IMG/VR virus record: IMGVR_UViG_3300028031_000003
Location: 1 to 37,564 of that record
Reading direction: 5' to 3' (one strand)
DNA length: 37,564 nt
DNA from: a virus
Position 1 is the first letter of the stretch. The number at the start of each line of letters is the position of its first letter. The notes under the pieces were generated by a model. The model was not told the origin of the DNA and made no database searches. It saw only the letters and a program-made list of their open reading frames with translations. A program made the translations under genes and the position numbers. Below are positions 3,664-36,228 of this stretch, one piece after another.

Positions 3664-4691
3664 TGACTAGTGTTACATATACGGCAAAAAAAGGATTGAA
3701 GCTTTTTGGAAATGAGGTGGGTTCATTTCTTAATAATTCAAAGACATCTGATATAAGTGTGACTGAAAATAATTTGACAGAATTCGGGACAGTTTTAGAA
3801 TCGGCAGTTGATCAAGGCTCCGCTGTCTTTGGTTACAGTGGATTTAGTTCTGTTAACTATTTGAGCCAAGGGATTGAAAGCGCATTTGATTTTGGGTCTG
3901 GTGATTTTTCCATCTGTTGCTGGGTTAAATTTGGCTCTTCGACGACAGGAACTATATTTGATAGGTCTAATGGAGCGGATGATGCAAATAGAATAAATTT
4001 TTATATTCAAGGAACGACTCAAATTTTGCACCTCATTATTAATGGAACAGACGTTAGCAACGTTGGGTTTATTCCATTAAATGAATGGACATTTATTTGT
4101 GTAAAAAGAGAAAGCTCAATAATATCAGCCTATATAAATTCTAATATAGTTAACACGGTGGCATCAGCTTCCAGTGTATCTGGTTCTTTTTCTTCAAGAA
4201 TCGGATTAAATTTGCTAGGTTTGTCTGAATTTAATGGAAGTTTGTCAAATATAGAAATATTGCCAACAACTTTAAGTGACTCACAAATAAAGGAAAAATA
4301 TGATTCAGAAAGAGAAATGTTTAAGAAAAATTCTGTTTTCACTATATCAGGTGATGAATATAGTTTGGATATAGGTATAGATAAAGACGAAAGGACAGAG
4401 CTAGTTAAATCAAAGGCTCCTGTGTCTATTGGCGGAAGTCAAGAAACCGTATTGCAACGTGTCGATGTTTTTCATGAGATAAACATAAATAATGTGCCTA
4501 AAAATAGTTTGCCAATATATAGAAATTGGCTTCAATCTGTTAACTCTGGTGAGGTATTCACGATTGATATGGATGGTACTATAGCTTTGCCAGAAGACCC
4601 CGTATCAGTTATTTCAGATGGCGGGCATTCTGAGAATAGAGTGGGTACGCTTGATCTGTATAACATACCTGTTAAGCTGCGCGAAATATGA
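3663..4691 (+). CDS. Tail protein with an N-terminal LamG/concanavalin-like lectin domain (in the distal-tail-protein position)
   Basis: The segment GDFSICCWVKFGSSTTGTIFDRSNGADDANRINFYIQG...NEWTFICVKRESSIISAYINSNIV matches the Laminin_G_3 pattern. The gene lies immediately after the TMP (ATGA-type coupling). Confidence 0.6.
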   Translation: MTSVTYTAKKGLKLFGNEVGSFLNNSKTSDISVTENNLTEFGTVLESAVDQGSAVFGYSGFSSVNYLSQGIESAFDFGSGDFSICCWVKFGSSTTGTIFDRSNGADDANRINFYIQGTTQILHLIINGTDVSNVGFIPLNEWTFICVKRESSIISAYINSNIVNTVASASSVSGSFSSRIGLNLLGLSEFNGSLSNIEILPTTLSDSQIKEKYDSEREMFKKNSVFTISGDEYSLDIGIDKDERTELVKSKAPVSIGGSQETVLQRVDVFHEININNVPKNSLPIYRNWLQSVNSGEVFTIDMDGTIALPEDPVSVISDGGHSENRVGTLDLYNIPVKLREI

Positions 4692-15364: not shown

Positions 15365-15804
15365 TTAATTTTTCCTTTAGTTCCATTAGAAAAGTTAGCA
15401 TTCATTTTTAGTCGTATTGTCTCTTGTATGTCGATTCCCTGCCACTCAGCTAAGTCGAGTGTTCTTAAAATAATATCAGCTAGTTCAAAGCTAAAATTTT
15501 GAGTTGGTTTTTCCCCGCGACATTCATTAACAGCCTGTCCCACTTCACTTGCTATTAACGCTAGTGCCTCTAAAACTGTTTTATTTTTGTGCCACCCCAT
15601 TCTCTCCACCCAATCAAATTGATCGATTGCTAAAGCGCCTAAACGTATATCTATATCTGCATTTACGTGGTCTTTTGCTTCTGTCAATGCGGTATCAAAC
15701 GAATGCATCATCAGAGGGAACTCGTCATCCACAGGCTCCGTCATTCTTAATGCCAAACCTGTTTTATACACACTTCTTAATTTAGTTAGTTCATCACTGC
15801 TCAT
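15361..15804 (-). CDS. mazG: MazG-like nucleotide pyrophosphohydrolase
   Basis: LALIASEVGQAVNECRG...ELADIILRTLDLAEWQGIDIQETIRLKMNAN is the characteristic MazG/NTP-PPase helix pair. Confidence 0.8.
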   Translation of the reverse strand: MSSDELTKLRSVYKTGLALRMTEPVDDEFPLMMHSFDTALTEAKDHVNADIDIRLGALAIDQFDWVERMGWHKNKTVLEALALIASEVGQAVNECRGEKPTQNFSFELADIILRTLDLAEWQGIDIQETIRLKMNANFSNGTKGKIK

Positions 15805-17932: not shown

Positions 17933-18325
17933 TTATTTTTTAAATAAATATTTGTTTGAGAAACCATCGCCATCGCCATCGCCAAAGCCAAAGCCAAAGC
18001 CAAAGCCATCGCCAAAGCCAAAGCCAAAGCCAAAGCCATCGCCATCGCCAAAGCCATCGCCAGAGCCAAAGCCATCGCCAAAGCCATCGCCAAAGCCATA
18101 TCCATGGCCAAAGCCAAAGCCAAAGCCAAAGCCAAAGCTAATTAAATTAGCCGCCTTTTTGACATAAATTTTATGCTCGACTGAACATAACCTTAAGACG
18201 GCTGATACTGGCATGAGTGTTTTTTTAATATTTTTTTCTACCATCCAGTCAAAAACACCATCTTCGCAAGCTCCCGCCTCGATCACATCCATGGCGGTGA
18301 TGTGTGTTTTTACGCTAATATCCAT
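17933..18325 (-). CDS. Protein with a globular N-domain and a (GF/GD)n dipeptide-repeat C-terminal tail
   Basis: The N-domain is [31 protein letters not shown].... From about residue 64 the sequence is [57 protein letters not shown], encoded by the hexamer microsatellite. Confidence 0.6.
17964..18138. repeat. Hexanucleotide microsatellite (gccaaa / gccatc units, about 29 units)
   Basis: Directly visible as ccatcgccatcgccatcgccaaagccaaagccaaagcc.... All reading frames stay open across it. Confidence 0.95.
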
Positions 18326-20357: not shown

Positions 20358-20434
20358 TGGCGCGCCTAGAGGGATTCGAACCCCCAGCCAATAGAGTAGA
20401 AATCTATTGCTTTATCCAATTAAGCTATAGGCGC
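20358..20434 (-). tRNA. tRNA-Arg (anticodon UCU), CCA encoded
   Basis: The reverse complement GCGCCTA-TA-GCTT-AATTGGATA-AAGC-A-ATAGA-TTTCTAC-TCTAT-TGGCT-GGGGG-TTCGAAT-CCCTC-TAGGCGC-G-CCA folds into a full cloverleaf of 77 nt. Confidence 0.9.
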
Positions 20435-23581: not shown

Positions 23582-24019
23582 AATATTTCTCTCAATTTAT
23601 TTTAAAAATAGGTTGTCTAATGAGACCTTAAGGGACACCATGCATATCCACCTTAAGCTCTTCTGTTTATCTCTAATTATTAATTATCCATAATCAATTT
23701 ATATATATAATTATCAGGAACCATCAAGCATCCTGCTAAATTGGTCATAAATCCCATTTATGTCCACTTACACTGTTTTTCCGCCGGTCTCAAAGCGGTT
23801 ATATATAAATTATCCACTGCTTGTAAAAACTTGCTTTTTTGATTATCAGGCACAATAAAGCCTAAACTTTCAGTGAATCAGACTGATTAGTTAGATTTCT
23901 TGCAATGTTCAAACAGATTGGCTAAAATACTTATATTGGTTGCACAATGTGCGGTTGAATATGTAAATGCCTAAACTTTCTTACTGTTTGATCGGGCTGG
24001 TAACCTAACCAATGTTTAT

Positions 24020-24048
24020 ATAATATCTTGACATCCTAGGAACGTCAA
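24020..24048 (-). promoter_or_regulatory. Sigma-70-type promoter (TTGACG - 17 nt - TATTAT) overlapping an imperfect palindrome
   Basis: The reverse complement reads TTGACGttcctaggatgtcaagaTATTAT. On the plus strand, 24028..24048 is TTGAC-a-TCCTAGGA-ac-GTCAA. Confidence 0.55.
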
Positions 24049-24052
24049 GAGC

Positions 24053-24080
24053 AAAAAAGCCTCTTAATTGAGGCTTTTTT
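24053..24080. terminator. Bidirectional rho-independent terminator
   Basis: AAAAAAGCCTC-ttaatt-GAGGCTTTTTT, immediately downstream of the stop of gene 24093..24275. Confidence 0.8.
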
Positions 24081-24092
24081 GTGCACGATGAT

Positions 24093-25127: not shown

Positions 25128-25202
25128 AGGCCAGTAGCTCAAAGGTAGACCAAGGCACTAATAATGCCTTGGTTGCTGGTTCAAATCCGGCTTGGCCTAC
25201 CA
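25128..25202 (+). tRNA. tRNA-Ile-like with anticodon AAU (A34), CCA encoded
   Basis: AGGCCAG-TA-GCTC-AAAGGTA-GACC-A-AGGCA-CTAATAA-TGCCT-TGGTT-GCTGG-TTCAAAT-CCGGC-TTGGCCT-A-CCA. The acceptor, discriminator and T arm resemble bacterial tRNA-Ile(GAU). Confidence 0.75.
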
Positions 25203-25206
25203 GTTT

Positions 25207-25282
25207 GAGAGTTTAGTGTAGCGTTATTACACTGGTCTTCAAGACCAGAGAAAGTCGGGTTCAATTCCCGCTGATCTCACCA
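25207..25282 (+). tRNA. tRNA-like gene with anticodon UCA (opal-suppressor / Trp-UCA type); imperfect acceptor and D stems
   Basis: The anticodon arm CTGGT-CTTCAAG-ACCAG has U33 and A37 and resembles the tRNA-Trp arm. The T arm is (T)CGGG-TTCAATT-CCCG(C) and the 3' end is ...TGATCTC-A-CCA. Acceptor pairs 5 and 7 mismatch. Confidence 0.5.
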
Positions 25283-31511: not shown

Positions 31512-32918
31512 ATGGCCGTAAGCACATTACATTCAAAGTATTCTGAAAACATAGCTAAAATTCGCACGGTCAGAGACTGTGTTGAAGGGTCAAGAAAGAT
31601 AAAGCAAGGCAAAGAGCTGTACCTTCCAAAGCCTAACCCTGATGATGTTTCGGAAGAAAATAGAAATCGATATATCGACTATATTACTCGAGCAAATTTT
31701 ATAAATTTCACTGGCCATACCCTAGAGGGGTTGCTTGGTATGGTTTTCAGAAAAGACCCAGAAATTAAGCTGCCATCATCTATCGAATATTTAATTGATA
31801 ATGCGGATGGAAACGGACTAAGTCTTAAGCAGGTTGGCCAGTCGGTAGTTAGCGAGATTGCACAGGCTGGCAGACACGGTCTTCTGACTGATTACCCGCA
31901 AGCTGAAAGCGGCTTAACGAAATCAGAAGTAACAAATCTTGGTTTGTTGGCCACTATAAAATCATACAAGGCTGAGTCAATAATAAATTGGAGGACAATA
32001 ACCAGAGGCTCTACAACTATGCTGTCTCTGGTTGTGCTGCTTGAGCCAACGGAAGTTATCAAGGATAGTGACAATGAAGTTTCCTTCGATATAGATGTAG
32101 TTGACTACTATCGTGTGCTGTACATTGACAAAGGAGTTTACAAACAAAGGCTTTATGATAACAATGAAAAACTTATTCAAGATGAAATAATCCCAAATAA
32201 TGAAAGAGGCGAGCCTTGGAATTTAATTCCCTTCGTTTTTGTTGGCTCAGAAGAAAATGATGTAAATATAGATAAAATTCCAATTTACGACATAGCAGAA
32301 ATAAATATATCACACTACCGAAACAGCGCTGACTTTGAAGAAAGTTCATATCAAATAGGACAGCCAACGCCCGTATTGTCAGGTCTAAATCAAAACTGGG
32401 TTGACGAAAATATGAAAGGCGGCGTAATGCTTGGCTCAAGATCGGCAATTCTGTTGCCAGAGGGCGGTGGCTCGTCTTTATTGCAAGCAAATCCTAATCA
32501 AATGCCGGAGCGAGGGATGGAAATGAAAGAGGCCCAAATGGTGATGATTGGTGCCCGCATAATTCAAGACATGGGCGGAAATGAGACGGTTGATGCTGCC
32601 AGTATGCGAAATGCCGGGCAAAACTCAAAGTTATCACTGATAGTCACAAATACAAGAAACGCGCTGATGCAATGCTTGGCATGGGCAACCGAATATATGG
32701 GCGGAGACCCTGAACAAATCGAGCTAGAGTTTAATAAGCAGTTTTATGATAAATCTATTGACCCGCAAGCCGTTATTGCTGACATCCAGCTATTAGACAG
32801 GGGTGTTATTGCTAAGAAAGATTTGCGTCGAAACTTGAGAAAGGCTGACAGAATAGCCGATGATAGAACAGACGAGGATATTGATTCGGAGGCACAGGCT
32901 TCTAGCCCTATAGAATAA
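31512..32918 (+). CDS. Portal protein
   Basis: 468 aa, between terL and the Mu-F-like gene. It has a DUF4055-like N-terminus (...VRDCVEGSRKIKQGKELYLPKPNP...NRYIDYITRANFINFTGHTLEGLLGMVFRK) and an acidic C-terminus. Confidence 0.8.
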   Translation: MAVSTLHSKYSENIAKIRTVRDCVEGSRKIKQGKELYLPKPNPDDVSEENRNRYIDYITRANFINFTGHTLEGLLGMVFRKDPEIKLPSSIEYLIDNADGNGLSLKQVGQSVVSEIAQAGRHGLLTDYPQAESGLTKSEVTNLGLLATIKSYKAESIINWRTITRGSTTMLSLVVLLEPTEVIKDSDNEVSFDIDVVDYYRVLYIDKGVYKQRLYDNNEKLIQDEIIPNNERGEPWNLIPFVFVGSEENDVNIDKIPIYDIAEINISHYRNSADFEESSYQIGQPTPVLSGLNQNWVDENMKGGVMLGSRSAILLPEGGGSSLLQANPNQMPERGMEMKEAQMVMIGARIIQDMGGNETVDAASMRNAGQNSKLSLIVTNTRNALMQCLAWATEYMGGDPEQIELEFNKQFYDKSIDPQAVIADIQLLDRGVIAKKDLRRNLRKADRIADDRTDEDIDSEAQASSPIE

Positions 32919-33955
32919 TGTCCGCTAGAGATCACCTAATTGACATTGCAACAAGGCATCAGGTGCTTGTTCAGCGCTACTCTTCTGGCCAAGCCAATGA
33001 GGCTAAAAAGCTAATAAAAAGGCTTCGCAGAGAGATTGTTGCTAGGTTATCTGATGAGCCTACGAAATTTCAAATAAATAGGTTAAACCCATTGCTCATA
33101 TCATTAAATGAGCTTTACGATAGCGTATTTTCAGACTTGTCCACAAGCATTAATTCTGCTTCATTTGATTTCTCATTAAGCGAAATGAGATTTTCAGAAT
33201 CCATGATTAATTCTACCGTTGTTGATTCGGTGATTGTTTCGTTGCCAAGTACTCAGCAGCTACAATCTGCATTGATTAGCAGCAAAATGAATGTCAGGCT
33301 TTCAAATTCAAGCGTGACAATAAATCAGGCAATTCAGTCGTTTGCTAACAAGAAGTCGCTAGAAATAACAAGAACTGTAAATGATTCAATTTTATTGGGT
33401 GACACTACTCCTCAAATATCTAAAAAAGTATCTGAGCTAATGAATGTTAAGCACACTAGAGAGGTTGAGTCACTTGTTAGCACGGTGGTTAACCATTCGT
33501 CTAATGTCGCTCGAAATTTAGTCTACGATGAGAATCAAGATATATTAGATGGGTATGAATGGGTAAGCACTCTTGATTCAAAGACCACGCTTGTGTGTTC
33601 TGGACGTGACGGCAAAACTTACAACATTAATGCAGGGCCGTTTCCGCCTGCACACTTCAAGTGTAGATCAACCACAATTCCCGTTGTAAACTCAAATTTT
33701 ACAGTAGTTAAGTTGGCTGGTATGCGGCCGCAATCTGGTGACACTAGCGGGAGAACTAGTGGCAAAACAACTTATGGGCAATGGCTCAAAAAACAGTCTA
33801 AAAAGTTTCAGCAAGAAGCTTTAGGCCCGGAGCGAGCAAAGCTATTTAGGTCTGGAAAATTAAAGATAGACCAGTTTACAGATGAGCTTAGCGGTGACAC
33901 GTTAACGTTAGATGCTCTCGAATCAAAATACCCTTTGGCATTTGAATTAAATTAG
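32918..33955 (+). CDS. Head morphogenesis protein (Mu F / SPP1 gp7 family)
   Basis: WVSTLDSKTTLVCSGRDGKTYN...GPFPPAHFKCRSTTIPV is the family signature. Confidence 0.8.
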   Translation: MSARDHLIDIATRHQVLVQRYSSGQANEAKKLIKRLRREIVARLSDEPTKFQINRLNPLLISLNELYDSVFSDLSTSINSASFDFSLSEMRFSESMINSTVVDSVIVSLPSTQQLQSALISSKMNVRLSNSSVTINQAIQSFANKKSLEITRTVNDSILLGDTTPQISKKVSELMNVKHTREVESLVSTVVNHSSNVARNLVYDENQDILDGYEWVSTLDSKTTLVCSGRDGKTYNINAGPFPPAHFKCRSTTIPVVNSNFTVVKLAGMRPQSGDTSGRTSGKTTYGQWLKKQSKKFQQEALGPERAKLFRSGKLKIDQFTDELSGDTLTLDALESKYPLAFELN

Positions 33956-34223
33956 CATAATTTTCCTTATTTCTATTGGCGTTTAAGTATCTTTTCTGCC
34001 TTCTTTTGTCTATTTTTGGGCTATTTATCATGAAAATATTAGCGGGAGTTTCCTGTATTGTTTTCAATGCCTCGCTAATAGGTCTGGATTTTCCGTAAAA
34101 ATACCTAAGATATGACTCAAATCCAGCATCAATAAAAGAATCTCCAACTTTAATTTTCTCACTCTCAATTTGAATAAGCATAGCCATATACTTTGATTTC
34201 TTTCTTAATTCTTGTTTTTTCAT
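33888..34223 (-). CDS. Opposite-strand hypothetical gene inside the head module (moron-like)
   Basis: 111-aa ORF whose 3' end overlaps the Mu-F-like gene by 68 nt. Its upstream region carries an 11-bp inverted repeat and the DnaA-box cluster. Confidence 0.4.
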   Translation of the reverse strand: MKKQELRKKSKYMAMLIQIESEKIKVGDSFIDAGFESYLRYFYGKSRPISEALKTIQETPANIFMINSPKIDKRRQKRYLNANRNKENYANLIQMPKGILIREHLTLTCHR

Positions 34224-34260
34224 AAAATTCCTAGAGAAAATAAATTGATCGAAGTTAATT

Positions 34261-34293
34261 ATATCAACTTATTTTGAAGTGTTAAGTTGATAT
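34261..34293. repeat. Perfect 11-bp inverted repeat (atatcaactta - 11 nt - taagttgatat)
   Basis: Read directly. It overlaps a TATAAT on the minus strand. Confidence 0.9.
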
Positions 34294-34295
34294 CC

Positions 34296-34368
34296 TGTGT
34301 AAATCCTGTGCATAAGTTGTGCATATGTGGATAACTTATGCTATATTCTGTTTATATCCTGTGGATAA
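34296..34368 (+). promoter_or_regulatory. Cluster of same-orientation DnaA boxes (complement of TTATNCACA)
   Basis: Perfect 9-mers are TGTGCATAA (34307..34315), TGTGGATAA (34326..34334) and TGTGGATAA (34360..34368). Weaker sites are TGTGTAAAT (34296..34304) and TGTGCATAT (34318..34326). ATCCTGTG occurs three times. Confidence 0.6.
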
Positions 34369-34398
34369 CTATAGGCTAGTGGCCAAAGAGAAGAAAAT

Positions 34399-35082
34399 AT
34401 GAAGTTTAGAAATCAATTCCTAAAGTACCAAATTAACCAAAATGATGATGGTGGTGAACAAGGTGGAGGAGGTGGCGGTGAGGACTTGTCGGGTCAGGTA
34501 GAAGACCTTAAGAGCCAGCTTAATAAGCTTCAATCGAAAAATAACGAATTATTGGATGAGACAAAAAAAGCTAAGAATGAGCGTAAAGCAGCTCAAGAAG
34601 ATGCTAAGAACAAGGCTGAGGCCGCATTAAAAGAAGCCGGCGATTACAAGGCTCTTTATGGCTCAGCAGAGGAAAAATATAATGATCTTAATGATCGATT
34701 TGAAAAGTTAAACATTAGCAATGCTAATGAAAAAATAAGCAAGGCAGCTTTGCTCATGGCAAATGAGCTTGCGAATGGATTTAACGCAGAATTATTGAGT
34801 GAGCAAATTAGCAAGAGGATGAGATTCCAAGATGGGGGGATCAAAGTCACTAATGAAAATGGTGATTTGACAGTCTCATCTTTGGATGATTTAAAGCAAG
34901 ATATAAAATCAAATGAGAGGTTTTCCGGTTTATTGGCAGGAAATCAATCTAGCGGAGGCGGTGCTTCCGGCGACAAAGGTAAGAGCGGCGGTGCTGCGCA
35001 AGATAAAACACATGACGAGGTGCTGGCTATGCAGCCGCACGAACGAGCGCTTTATTTTAAGAAAAAGCGCGAAAAAAATTAA
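34399..35082 (+). CDS. Scaffolding protein
   Basis: 227 aa with a Gly run, then a long charged coiled coil (DLKSQLNKLQSKNNELLDETKKAKNERKAAQEDAKNKAEAALKE). It lies directly upstream of the major capsid gene. Confidence 0.7.
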   Translation: MKFRNQFLKYQINQNDDGGEQGGGGGGEDLSGQVEDLKSQLNKLQSKNNELLDETKKAKNERKAAQEDAKNKAEAALKEAGDYKALYGSAEEKYNDLNDRFEKLNISNANEKISKAALLMANELANGFNAELLSEQISKRMRFQDGGIKVTNENGDLTVSSLDDLKQDIKSNERFSGLLAGNQSSGGGASGDKGKSGGAAQDKTHDEVLAMQPHERALYFKKKREKN

Positions 35083-35094
35083 AGGTGAATTAAA

Positions 35095-36228
35095 ATGTCA
35101 GAAGACAATTTAGCAGCAATAATGTCAAATGTTTACGAGGCTATGGATATCATTAGTCGTGAGCCAATCGGTATGGTTGGTTCTGTTACCGTTTCCGCAA
35201 GCAGTCAGCGCGTAGCGCTAAATCAAAATATTGCGGTGGATATTGAGCCGGAAATTGTCGGTGTCTCCGTCGTTCCTGCTATGACGCCTCCTGAACCAGC
35301 AGACTTAACGCCAGAAGTTGAAAATATTGTAATTACAAAGGCGGAAGCTTTTCCATTTAAAATAACTGGTGATAGCCAGAAAATATATGACACTAGCTCC
35401 GGCTGGATAAGCGCCCGAACAAATAGAATTTTGCAGGCCATGAGAACGGCTTCTAATGCAGTTGAAGCTGATTTAGCTGCACTTCATACTCAATTTGGTC
35501 GGGCTTACGGTACACCCGGCACAACTCCATTTTCATCTACAACCGCAGATTCAGCTCAGTTGGGAAAAATACTAACCGATAATGGCGCCCCGGCAAATGA
35601 GCGTAAGCTTGTTATAGATACAACTGCCGGAGTGAATTTGCGTTCACTGGCATCGCTAACTAAGGCAAATGAAGCGGGTACCACCGACACGCTAAGGCTT
35701 GGAAGCCTGTTAGACCTTAACGGTTTTAGAATTTCTGAATCTGGAAAAATAAATACATCGGTAGCAGGTACTGGTGCATCTTACCAAACTACTGCCGCTT
35801 TTGCGGTTGGTGATACAAGTATAACGCTTGACACTGGCACGGGCACCATTCTGGCTGGCGATTGCATCCAATTCGCAGGCGATAGCAATATTTATGTTGT
35901 CCATACTGCGCTAACTGCTGGCACTGTGATAATCGCTAAAAACGGGCTTAGAGAATCGTTATCTGATAATACAGCCGTTACTGTTATTGCAGCAGCCGCC
36001 AGAAATATGGCTTTCAATCGGTCTGCCATCGTTTTGGCTGCTCGGCCTATTTCTATGCCTGATGACGGTGATGCAGCAACCGAAGTTGAGATGATTGTTG
36101 ACCCGGTTTCGGGCTTGCCTTTTGAGATAGCGCACTACAAAGGCTATCGAATGAACAGGTGGGAGCTTAACCTTGCTTGGGGAGCAAAGGTCATTAAGCG
36201 AGAGCACACAGCTTTGTTGTTAGGTTAA
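35095..36228 (+). CDS. Major capsid protein (HK97-fold, P22-coat-like family)
   Basis: 377 aa, reading ...NVYEAMDIISREPIGMVGSVTVSASSQRVALNQNIAVDI... A strong terminator follows. Confidence 0.8.
   Translation: MSEDNLAAIMSNVYEAMDIISREPIGMVGSVTVSASSQRVALNQNIAVDIEPEIVGVSVVPAMTPPEPADLTPEVENIVITKAEAFPFKITGDSQKIYDTSSGWISARTNRILQAMRTASNAVEADLAALHTQFGRAYGTPGTTPFSSTTADSAQLGKILTDNGAPANERKLVIDTTAGVNLRSLASLTKANEAGTTDTLRLGSLLDLNGFRISESGKINTSVAGTGASYQTTAAFAVGDTSITLDTGTGTILAGDCIQFAGDSNIYVVHTALTAGTVIIAKNGLRESLSDNTAVTVIAAAARNMAFNRSAIVLAARPISMPDDGDAATEVEMIVDPVSGLPFEIAHYKGYRMNRWELNLAWGAKVIKREHTALLLG

Follow-up and report, generated by a model that had tools for sequence, protein, structure and literature searches.

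Introduction

DnaA-regulated promoters have been described for dnaA, nrdAB, and mioC in Escherichia coli, for the dnaA region in Bacillus subtilis, and for gidA at oriCII in Pseudomonas aeruginosa. In phage lambda, DnaA stimulates pR, an early promoter that is tied to the activation of ori-lambda and has few boxes, located downstream. DnaA is known as a transcription factor at few bacterial promoters and at lambda pR, and DnaA boxes are known from plasmid and phage origins. At the bacterial promoters named above, DnaA boxes lie over or beside the sigma-70 promoter, and the initiator doubles as a transcription factor (PMC11317965, PMC13438810). Here, we describe an array of DnaA boxes at positions 34296-34368 of the viral record IMGVR_UViG_3300028031_000003, a stretch of 37,564 nucleotides that was analyzed over its whole length and is referred to as the window. 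The array lies between the genes for a MuF-like head morphogenesis protein and a head scaffolding protein, and it surrounds P_sca, a putative internal promoter that would serve the scaffold and capsid genes.

The locus resembles the DnaA-regulated bacterial promoters in that its boxes stand at a predicted sigma-70 promoter and are paired with a spacing of 2-3 bp, but it differs from them in lying in a phage late module before scaffold and capsid genes, in carrying four to seven boxes in one orientation, and in being predicted from sequence. Like lambda pR, it would place host DnaA on a phage promoter by way of boxes; unlike lambda pR, the promoter is an internal late one and is encircled by them. 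Same-orientation clusters of boxes, some of them 2 bp apart and capable of holding a DnaA oligomer, are also a feature of the left half of oriC, P1 oriR, RK2 oriV, and pSC101. In contrast to those origins, the array comes without an unwinding element, Rep iterons, an adjacent replication gene, or a change in skew, and at its minimum it measures about 70 bp.

Late transcription is coupled to replication through the sliding clamp in phages T4 and Mu; the T4 clamp gp45 acts with gp55 and gp33, and MuC of Mu acts with the host beta clamp (PMC12867686). If the timing model considered below is right, late expression would here also be tied to replication through a replication protein, but whereas T4 and Mu employ a clamp and a phage activator, the host initiator would act directly on the DNA and no phage factor has been identified. 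This likeness is an analogy of logic and not homology. Finally, morons are independent transcription units located between phage genes (PMC3594210). A 111-residue open reading frame (ORF) next to the array is like a moron in having its own strong promoter between conserved head genes and in being absent or replaced in relatives, but unlike one in lying on the opposite strand, in lacking a detectable terminator, and in running at its 3' end antisense into the MuF gene. This ORF is a neighbor of the DnaA array and not its cause.

The DnaA Box Array and Its Conservation

The cluster of DnaA boxes is real, far from chance, and selectively maintained. It lies to the right of the MuF-like gene (32918-33955, plus strand), the left neighbor of the junction. 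The initial annotation, which was made from the sequence alone, had described a 175-bp gap between the minus-strand ORF (33888-34223) and the scaffold gene (34399), with three perfect matches to the consensus TTATNCACA on the minus strand (34307-34315, 34326-34334, and 34360-34368) and sites with one or two mismatches at 34318-34326 and 34296-34304. The gap and all five sites were confirmed, with one mismatch at 34318-34326 and two at 34296-34304, and a further minus-strand site with two mismatches, TGTTTATAT, was found at 34349-34357. The array in the window consists of three perfect, one one-mismatch, and two two-mismatch boxes, all on the same strand. Four of them form a distal group (34296-34334) with start-to-start distances of 11, 11, and 8 bp; the weak site at 34349-34357 and the proximal perfect box at 34360-34368 follow, and the segment 34343-34368 repeats 34290-34315 at 85%. 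Elsewhere in the 37.5-kb window a perfect box occurs only once, at 15764; 1.9 would be expected over the whole window. When the density of boxes was compared with composition, a check that the annotation had proposed, none of 5000 genomes simulated with a first-order Markov model matched in composition to the window contained as many as three perfect boxes within 80 bp, and 34 of them contained two.

Relatives were surveyed by aligning MuF homologues against metagenome, viral, and genome collections, which yielded 131 non-redundant loci (L-numbers denote the related or other viral loci compared with the window). The array is present in about ten lineages of uncultured phages, known from marine metagenomes, namely the window, L034, L039, L042, L084, L045, L044, L090, L043, and L142, always between the MuF stop codon and the scaffold start and always in the same orientation. 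Across the 131 loci, 29 perfect boxes fall in 25 kb of junction sequence versus 21 in 1.01 Mb elsewhere, a density at the junctions 55 times that of the remaining locus sequence, and all 29 junction boxes read TGTGNATAA on the scaffold-coding strand. Arrays comprise four to seven boxes in a single orientation (L044 has six perfect ones), and the smallest occupy gaps of 67-78 bp that begin right after the MuF stop codon. Many equally close relatives carry no array.

The closest relative, L034, has a MuF protein 60% identical to that of the window and carries a different cassette at the junction. From the array to the scaffold ATG (105 bp), the two are 82% identical, as against 56-63% for the flanking coding DNA, which suggests purifying selection on the array. 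Individual boxes turn over within this conserved segment: the perfect box of the window at 34326 is TGTTAATAG in L034, and conversely L034 has a perfect box at the position of the window's repeat arm, while the number of perfect boxes is kept at three in each. The weak site at 34349-34357 corresponds to TGTGTATAT in L034, with one mismatch. Homologous distal-box positions are retained in L034, L084, and L045. Arrays stand without any opposite-strand cassette in L039, L042, L084, L045, L090, and L043 and beside unrelated cassettes in the window, L034, L044, and L142; the array is therefore independent of the inserted gene and older than the insertion.

Identity of the Sites

The pattern of substitutions among the sites resembles that of a DnaA box. 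When the proximal site is left out, the arrays contain 37 distal sites within two mismatches of TGTGGATAA, and 24 of their 39 mismatches fall at position 5, which is the N of TTATNCACA (0, 0, 0, 5, 24, 3, 2, 0, and 5 mismatches at positions 1 to 9). The base at position 5 is G in 13 sites, T in 11, C in 8, and A in 5. The sites are flanked as (C/T)TGTGNATAA(C/G)T, and the R1 and R4 boxes of E. coli resemble these flanks. No reverse-orientation site was found in the arrays at this junction across the relatives surveyed. The core of a DnaA-reactivating sequence (DARS) consists of the oppositely oriented boxes I and II, and an element of the DARS type was ruled out, as no array of these relatives has oppositely oriented boxes.

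The commonest start-to-start spacing is 11 bp, which leaves a gap of 2 bp, and it occurs in the window, L034, L039, L042, L044, L084, L045, and L142. Stringer, Fitzgerald, and Wade reported that E. coli DnaA, in vivo, binds boxes in pairs with a gap of 2 or 3 bp and that binding requires both boxes as well as their spacing (PMC11317965). The array follows this rule of same-orientation pairs with gaps of 2-3 bp. Together, the degeneracy at position 5, the R1/R4-like flanks, the 2-bp gaps, and the uniform orientation provide good indirect evidence that DnaA is the ligand of the array.

The Putative Embedded Promoter and the Tandem Hairpins

An extended -10 element, TGcTATATT (34339-34347, plus strand), was recognized within the array by alignment with relatives and marks the putative internal promoter P_sca. 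A conserved 5' hairpin has its foot at the predicted transcription start, at about 34354, from which the transcript would run into the head scaffolding gene (34399-35082, plus strand; phrog_206, 3.9e-18) and the P22-type major capsid gene (35095-36228, plus strand; PF11651 P22_CoatProtein). Among the relatives, TGnTATAAT precedes the proximal site in L084, L045, L044, L043, L090, and L335, TATAAT stands at the same place in L142, L036, and L117, and L034 has TGtTATTAT. A promoter scan independently called TTGTGA-18-TATAAT (with TG) in L084 and TTGTTA-17-TATAAT in L036. The geometry is fixed: in the 11 tabulated lineages whose proximal site is of the TGTG type (L335 is not among them), the -10 hexamer ends 11-12 nt before the proximal TGTG and 6-7 nt before the first hairpin, hairpin A.

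Counted from the predicted start, the distal boxes of the window lie at about -58, -47, -36, and -28, and the proximal box lies at about +6. Boxes at about -47, -36, -28, and +6 are common to the window, L034, L084, and L045. They overlap the promoter also in L142, which has boxes at -56, -45, -34, -23, and +6, and in L044, which has boxes from -97 to -25 and at +6. The promoter and the hairpins are present without distal boxes in L335, L336, L036, and L146, and the distal boxes therefore look like an addition to an existing promoter. More distant relatives have the hairpins alone, in gaps of 7-50 nt. The likely history, read from these comparisons, is that the hairpins came first, then the promoter, and then the boxes.

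Hairpin A (34355-34367, plus strand) has the form TATCC-TGT-GGATA, would form the 5' end of the transcript, and contains the proximal box. Hairpin B (34374-34384, plus strand), GGCT-AGT-GGCC, lies just 5' of the scaffold ribosome-binding site and is a compensated form of a family-wide GGTC-(A/T)GT-GACC. Two tandem stem-loops with NGU triloops precede the scaffold ribosome-binding site in 41 of 81 non-redundant relatives (shuffled mean, 0.3), and the core stems covary, with 26 distinct versions of hairpin A and 15 of hairpin B. The hairpins of the cultured phage JLT2 (Paraglaciecola Antarctic JLT virus 2) are CUAUC-AGU-GAUAG and GAUU-UGU-AAUC. The pair is also seen in L134 (MW805362) at 4338-4364, and a sister clade has AGA loops in place of NGU. 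The double-hairpin element has no match in Rfam, and a single-sequence RNA fold of the leader was uninformative (z = -0.8), so that the hairpins are supported by covariation. They may stabilize the mRNA or serve as a translational operator for the scaffold gene. In view of the 85% repeat that links the proximal region to 34290-34315, the proximal box may have seeded the distal boxes through duplication.

Phased Arrays in Other Viruses

Arrays of this type extend well beyond the relatives of the window. Three perfect boxes with 2-bp gaps (24 fixed bases) were found in at least 120 IMG/VR contigs (L215-L334) with GC contents of 25-67%. Among the matches listed, 104 of 120 arrays lie outside long ORFs, 97 of 120 have no reverse box nearby, and the number of same-orientation boxes reaches nine. 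Another multi-box pattern, with a spacing of 9 bp, was found in 20 further contigs (L011-L030); the window has 8 bp and does not match it. An array stands directly before scaffold and capsid genes in L225, before genes for an acidic protein and the capsid in L259, and before those for a prohead protease and the capsid in L317, and in some other unrelated phages it precedes a small-terminase-like gene. A general rule that arrays precede head genes was dropped, since head or packaging genes occurred on both sides in a systematic count.

Full-text literature searches turned up no account of a conserved array of DnaA boxes surrounding the promoter of a phage structural gene. The pattern ATCCTGTG-N4-ATCCTGTGNATAA was also tried, and it yielded only coding VDNP repeats in unrelated phages. 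In these, TGTGGATAATCC occurs three- or fourfold inside coding sequence (L033, 3394-3426; L031, 4081-4125; L032, 2043-2075). The repeats of L033 are at the 5' end of a scaffold-like gene, and in all three loci the DnaA boxes sit within a reading frame.

Proposed Mechanism and Alternative Explanations

The initial annotation had offered three readings of the cluster: a DnaA-dependent origin, a DnaA-titrating element, and a DnaA-regulated promoter. The last is favored, given a conserved, predicted promoter in register with the boxes, and the origin fits least. We consider it an even call that the array represents an internal late promoter under DnaA control, from which the scaffold and capsid genes would be transcribed. 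In such a mechanism, host DnaA would bind cooperatively to the same-orientation boxes, most of them separated by 2 bp. With boxes at -58, -47, -36, -28, and +6, the binding site of RNA polymerase would be covered, and DnaA occupancy would set the output of P_sca. The DnaA oligomer would probably act as a repressor, since an extended -10 promoter needs no activator. Repression would be lifted as replicating phage DNA titrates DnaA or lowers the level of DnaA-ATP through clamp-dependent hydrolysis. Synthesis of scaffold and capsid would thereby be held until after replication, coupling the head proteins to it. An effect of the array on the divergent promoter next to it, that of the orphan gene, is also possible, and titration of DnaA is a plausible side effect. 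The broader proposal, that a family of marine siphophages uses host DnaA on a phased array as a switch or timer for scaffold and capsid, with heads made in step with replication and without a phage late regulator, is tentative and rather unlikely.

Several points weigh against the DnaA-controlled promoter. In the window itself P_sca is below the threshold of the promoter scan: its -10 hexamer reads TATATT, and the best candidates for a -35 hexamer are TTGTGC (19-nt spacer) and TGCATA (16-nt spacer). Activation, too, would be compatible with a weak -35, and the direction of regulation is a guess. DnaA binding, the activity and start of P_sca, the direction of regulation, and its timing have all been deduced from sequence. 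The proximal box coincides with hairpin A, and RNA structure alone could constrain its sequence. The lineages share kinship, so that the counts across lineages do not represent independent events. The host is placed by way of phage relatives, the nearest cultured one infecting Paraglaciecola.

The case for an origin starts from the genome itself, in which, as the initial annotation had noted, no initiator, helicase, primase, or polymerase is recognizable (Pfam, PHROGs, NCBIfam). A DnaA oligomer would open AT-rich DNA, load the host helicase, and so replace a phage initiator; in a variant, transcription starting at P_sca would help or prime the opening. AT-rich DNA does lie on the TGTG side of the boxes in the window, and the unwinding element of E. 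coli oriC adjoins R1 on that same side. JLT2, L168, and L202, which have a detectable helicase or initiator homologue, lack the array, and some of the phased arrays in the 120 or more other viral contigs look like origins. In addition, same-orientation boxes with 2-bp gaps resemble the low-affinity arrays of oriC (PMC11317965). Yet the AT-rich segment of the window is confined to its lineage, with the leftward promoter accounting for it, and the arrays of 67-78 bp between stop codon and ribosome-binding site contain neither AT-rich 13-mers nor DnaA-trio-like repeats; as these gaps start at the MuF stop codon, they leave no room for an unwinding element. A skew switch at the cluster, which the initial annotation had put forward as a check, is not seen: there is no GC or AT inflection at 34.3 kb, and the cumulative curves turn only at about 13.8 kb and 25 kb, where the direction of transcription changes. 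Skew here follows transcription and is thus weak evidence. L038, L335, and L336 have no array and yet a similar layout, with no recognizable initiator in the stretches read. Whether arrays stand in for phage replication genes was considered over the early regions of few array-bearing lineages (window, L136, L337); in the parts read, neither these nor array-lacking relatives have a recognizable initiator. The window also offers a rival candidate at 23582-24090, which is AT-rich, non-coding, and repeat-bearing. On this evidence an origin at the array is improbable.

An equally slim chance attaches to the array as a sink or manipulator of DnaA, in which amplified copies would absorb DnaA or promote DnaA-ATP hydrolysis in the manner of datA, shutting down host initiation with only an incidental effect on phage transcription. 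Each copy has several high-affinity boxes like R1 and R4, so that hundreds of copies would compete with those on the chromosome, and phased arrays are widespread and varied in position in unrelated viral contigs. A locus of the datA type has an essential IHF site among its boxes; by reading rather than by an IHF scan, the IHF consensus WATCAANNNNTTR is matched at 12 of 13 positions within the inverted repeat (34262-34274). This IHF-like site is confined to the window, however, and not conserved in relatives. A sink would need no fixed site, yet these phages keep the array at a single junction and at a set distance from the -10 element and hairpin A, and the window contains just one other perfect box.

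It is also possible, though unlikely, that the sites are not DnaA boxes at all but iterons for a phage protein or another host DNA-binding protein, or decayed duplicates of hairpin A (UAUCC-UGU-GGAUA), which would then function in the mRNA. The proximal box is exactly hairpin A of the family-wide double-hairpin RNA element, the 85% repeat between 34343-34368 and 34290-34315 points to duplication, and in cassette-free relatives transcription entering from upstream would cover the distal boxes too. The distal sites, however, are incapable of forming hairpins. They keep all eight specified positions and leave the N of the consensus free, which decaying copies of TGTGGATAA would not do, and their flanks and 2-bp gaps fit known DnaA requirements. 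No phage protein was found to accompany the array, in a weak test that covered the early regions of few lineages. The degeneracy at position 5 and the spacing make a different ligand or a pure RNA function unlikely.

If the DnaA-controlled promoter is what the array represents, late expression would be coupled to replication or to the growth state of the host without a regulator, by a logic comparable to that of T4 and Mu, whose late transcription depends on the clamp. The phased arrays in at least 120 contigs suggest that interacting with DnaA is a strategy common among phages, and such arrays would then be a common, overlooked means for phages to read or manipulate the replication state of the host. 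The breadth of arrays across viral contigs may outweigh the finding at a single promoter, the element itself being about 100 bp long.

The Inserted Gene and the Inverted Repeat

The initial annotation had also reported a perfect 11-bp inverted repeat immediately upstream of the boxes. The repeat ATATCAACTTA-N11-TAAGTTGATAT does exist (34261-34293, with arms at 34261-34271 and 34283-34293 and an 11-nt spacer), but it does not belong to the same cluster, as had been supposed: it is lineage-specific and is not kept in the alignment with the closest relative, L034. Its arms overlap the -35 and -10 elements of a divergent promoter, and it is therefore best read as the putative operator of that promoter. 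A second copy was found neither in the window nor in IMG/VR. The promoter, a leftward sigma-70 type called by the promoter scan (34258-34285, minus strand; 11 of 12 matches plus a TG extension), consists of a -35 TTAACA (34285..34280), a 16-nt spacer, and a TG-extended -10 TATAAT (34263..34258). An AGGA ribosome-binding site, properly spaced from it, lies 5 nt before the ATG (34223) of the 111-residue orphan ORF (33888-34223, minus strand; from the ORF list).

Nothing is inserted at the equivalent position in L001, L002, L038, and L039, and unrelated opposite-strand orphan cassettes are found there in other relatives (four genes in L034, two in L036, and others in L044/L136 and L142). Accordingly, we read the ORF together with its promoter and the repeat as a lineage-specific, moron-type insertion; the ORF has its own promoter and is absent from related genomes, as is characteristic of morons. 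Its stop codon is not in the inserted DNA, and because the final 68 nt of the reading frame overlap the conserved MuF 3' end in antisense orientation, the C-terminal 22 residues are probably accidental. No homologue was found among 5.8e9 proteins or 1.84e9 cluster representatives other than the ORF itself; a single match to a eukaryotic Ig-repeat protein was judged spurious. Pfam, PHROGs, and NCBIfam gave nothing useful for this protein, and its single-sequence AlphaFold model reached a predicted local distance difference test (pLDDT) score of 45. The minus strand yielded no intrinsic terminator for the ORF.

The MuF/scaffold junction is a hotspot for opposite-strand orphan cassettes, each with its own promoter. 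Cassettes were located at 33956-34258 in the window, 6617-7983 in L034, 11184-11670 in L036, 11054-11773 in L136, 2866-3345 in L142, and 6252-7865 in L134. The corresponding hotspot of JLT2 lies at the junction that follows the capsid gene. No cassette protein has a PHROG match, and a 160-residue cassette protein of L034 gives a weak, sub-threshold match to a twin-arginine translocation (TAT) signal-peptide family.

Genome Context

The window is a complete or nearly complete siphophage genome. The plus strand encodes its late genes; of two early operons, one runs leftward at 13.8-25.7 kb and the other rightward at 25.8-29.7 kb. The nearest cultured relative is JLT2 (39% identity in MuF and 42% in the capsid protein), and more distant prophage relatives occur in Halomonas, Vreelandella, and Carnimonas. 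On the strength of the Paraglaciecola phage and these prophages, the host is probably a marine gammaproteobacterium. A megablast search against cultured phages returned no match, and a distant blastn search returned marginal short matches only. Recognizable genes of DNA metabolism encode Erf, a YqaJ exonuclease, SSB, NinB, a RusA-like resolvase, endonuclease VII, a C5 methylase, and a MazG-like pyrophosphatase, and many small ORFs have no family match. A 353-residue protein encoded after the exonuclease was considered as an initiator; it is not evidently one, being rich in coiled coil, with few homologues and no domain.

The region 23582-24090, within the leftward early operon, is a 500-bp non-coding AT-rich stretch with several direct repeats and a palindrome pair, TATATATA. 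One-mismatch DnaA boxes are found there within a 13-nt repeat (TTATCCATA at 23684 and TTATCCACT at 23810), along with a bidirectional terminator-like hairpin at 24052-24081. The region could be an origin, an attachment site, or a non-coding RNA locus. Three tRNA genes (25128-25282 and 20358-20434) comprise Arg(tct), Ile(aat), and one with the anticodon TCA, which would read UGA and was called by ARAGORN as selenocysteine (SeC), with an Rfam score of 36 bits. The TCA tRNA may be an opal suppressor, which would raise the question whether the phage or its host has reassigned a stop codon. Lastly, a hexanucleotide tandem repeat, GCCAAA x 26, lies at 17975-18138 in overlapping minus-strand ORFs beside the SSB gene.

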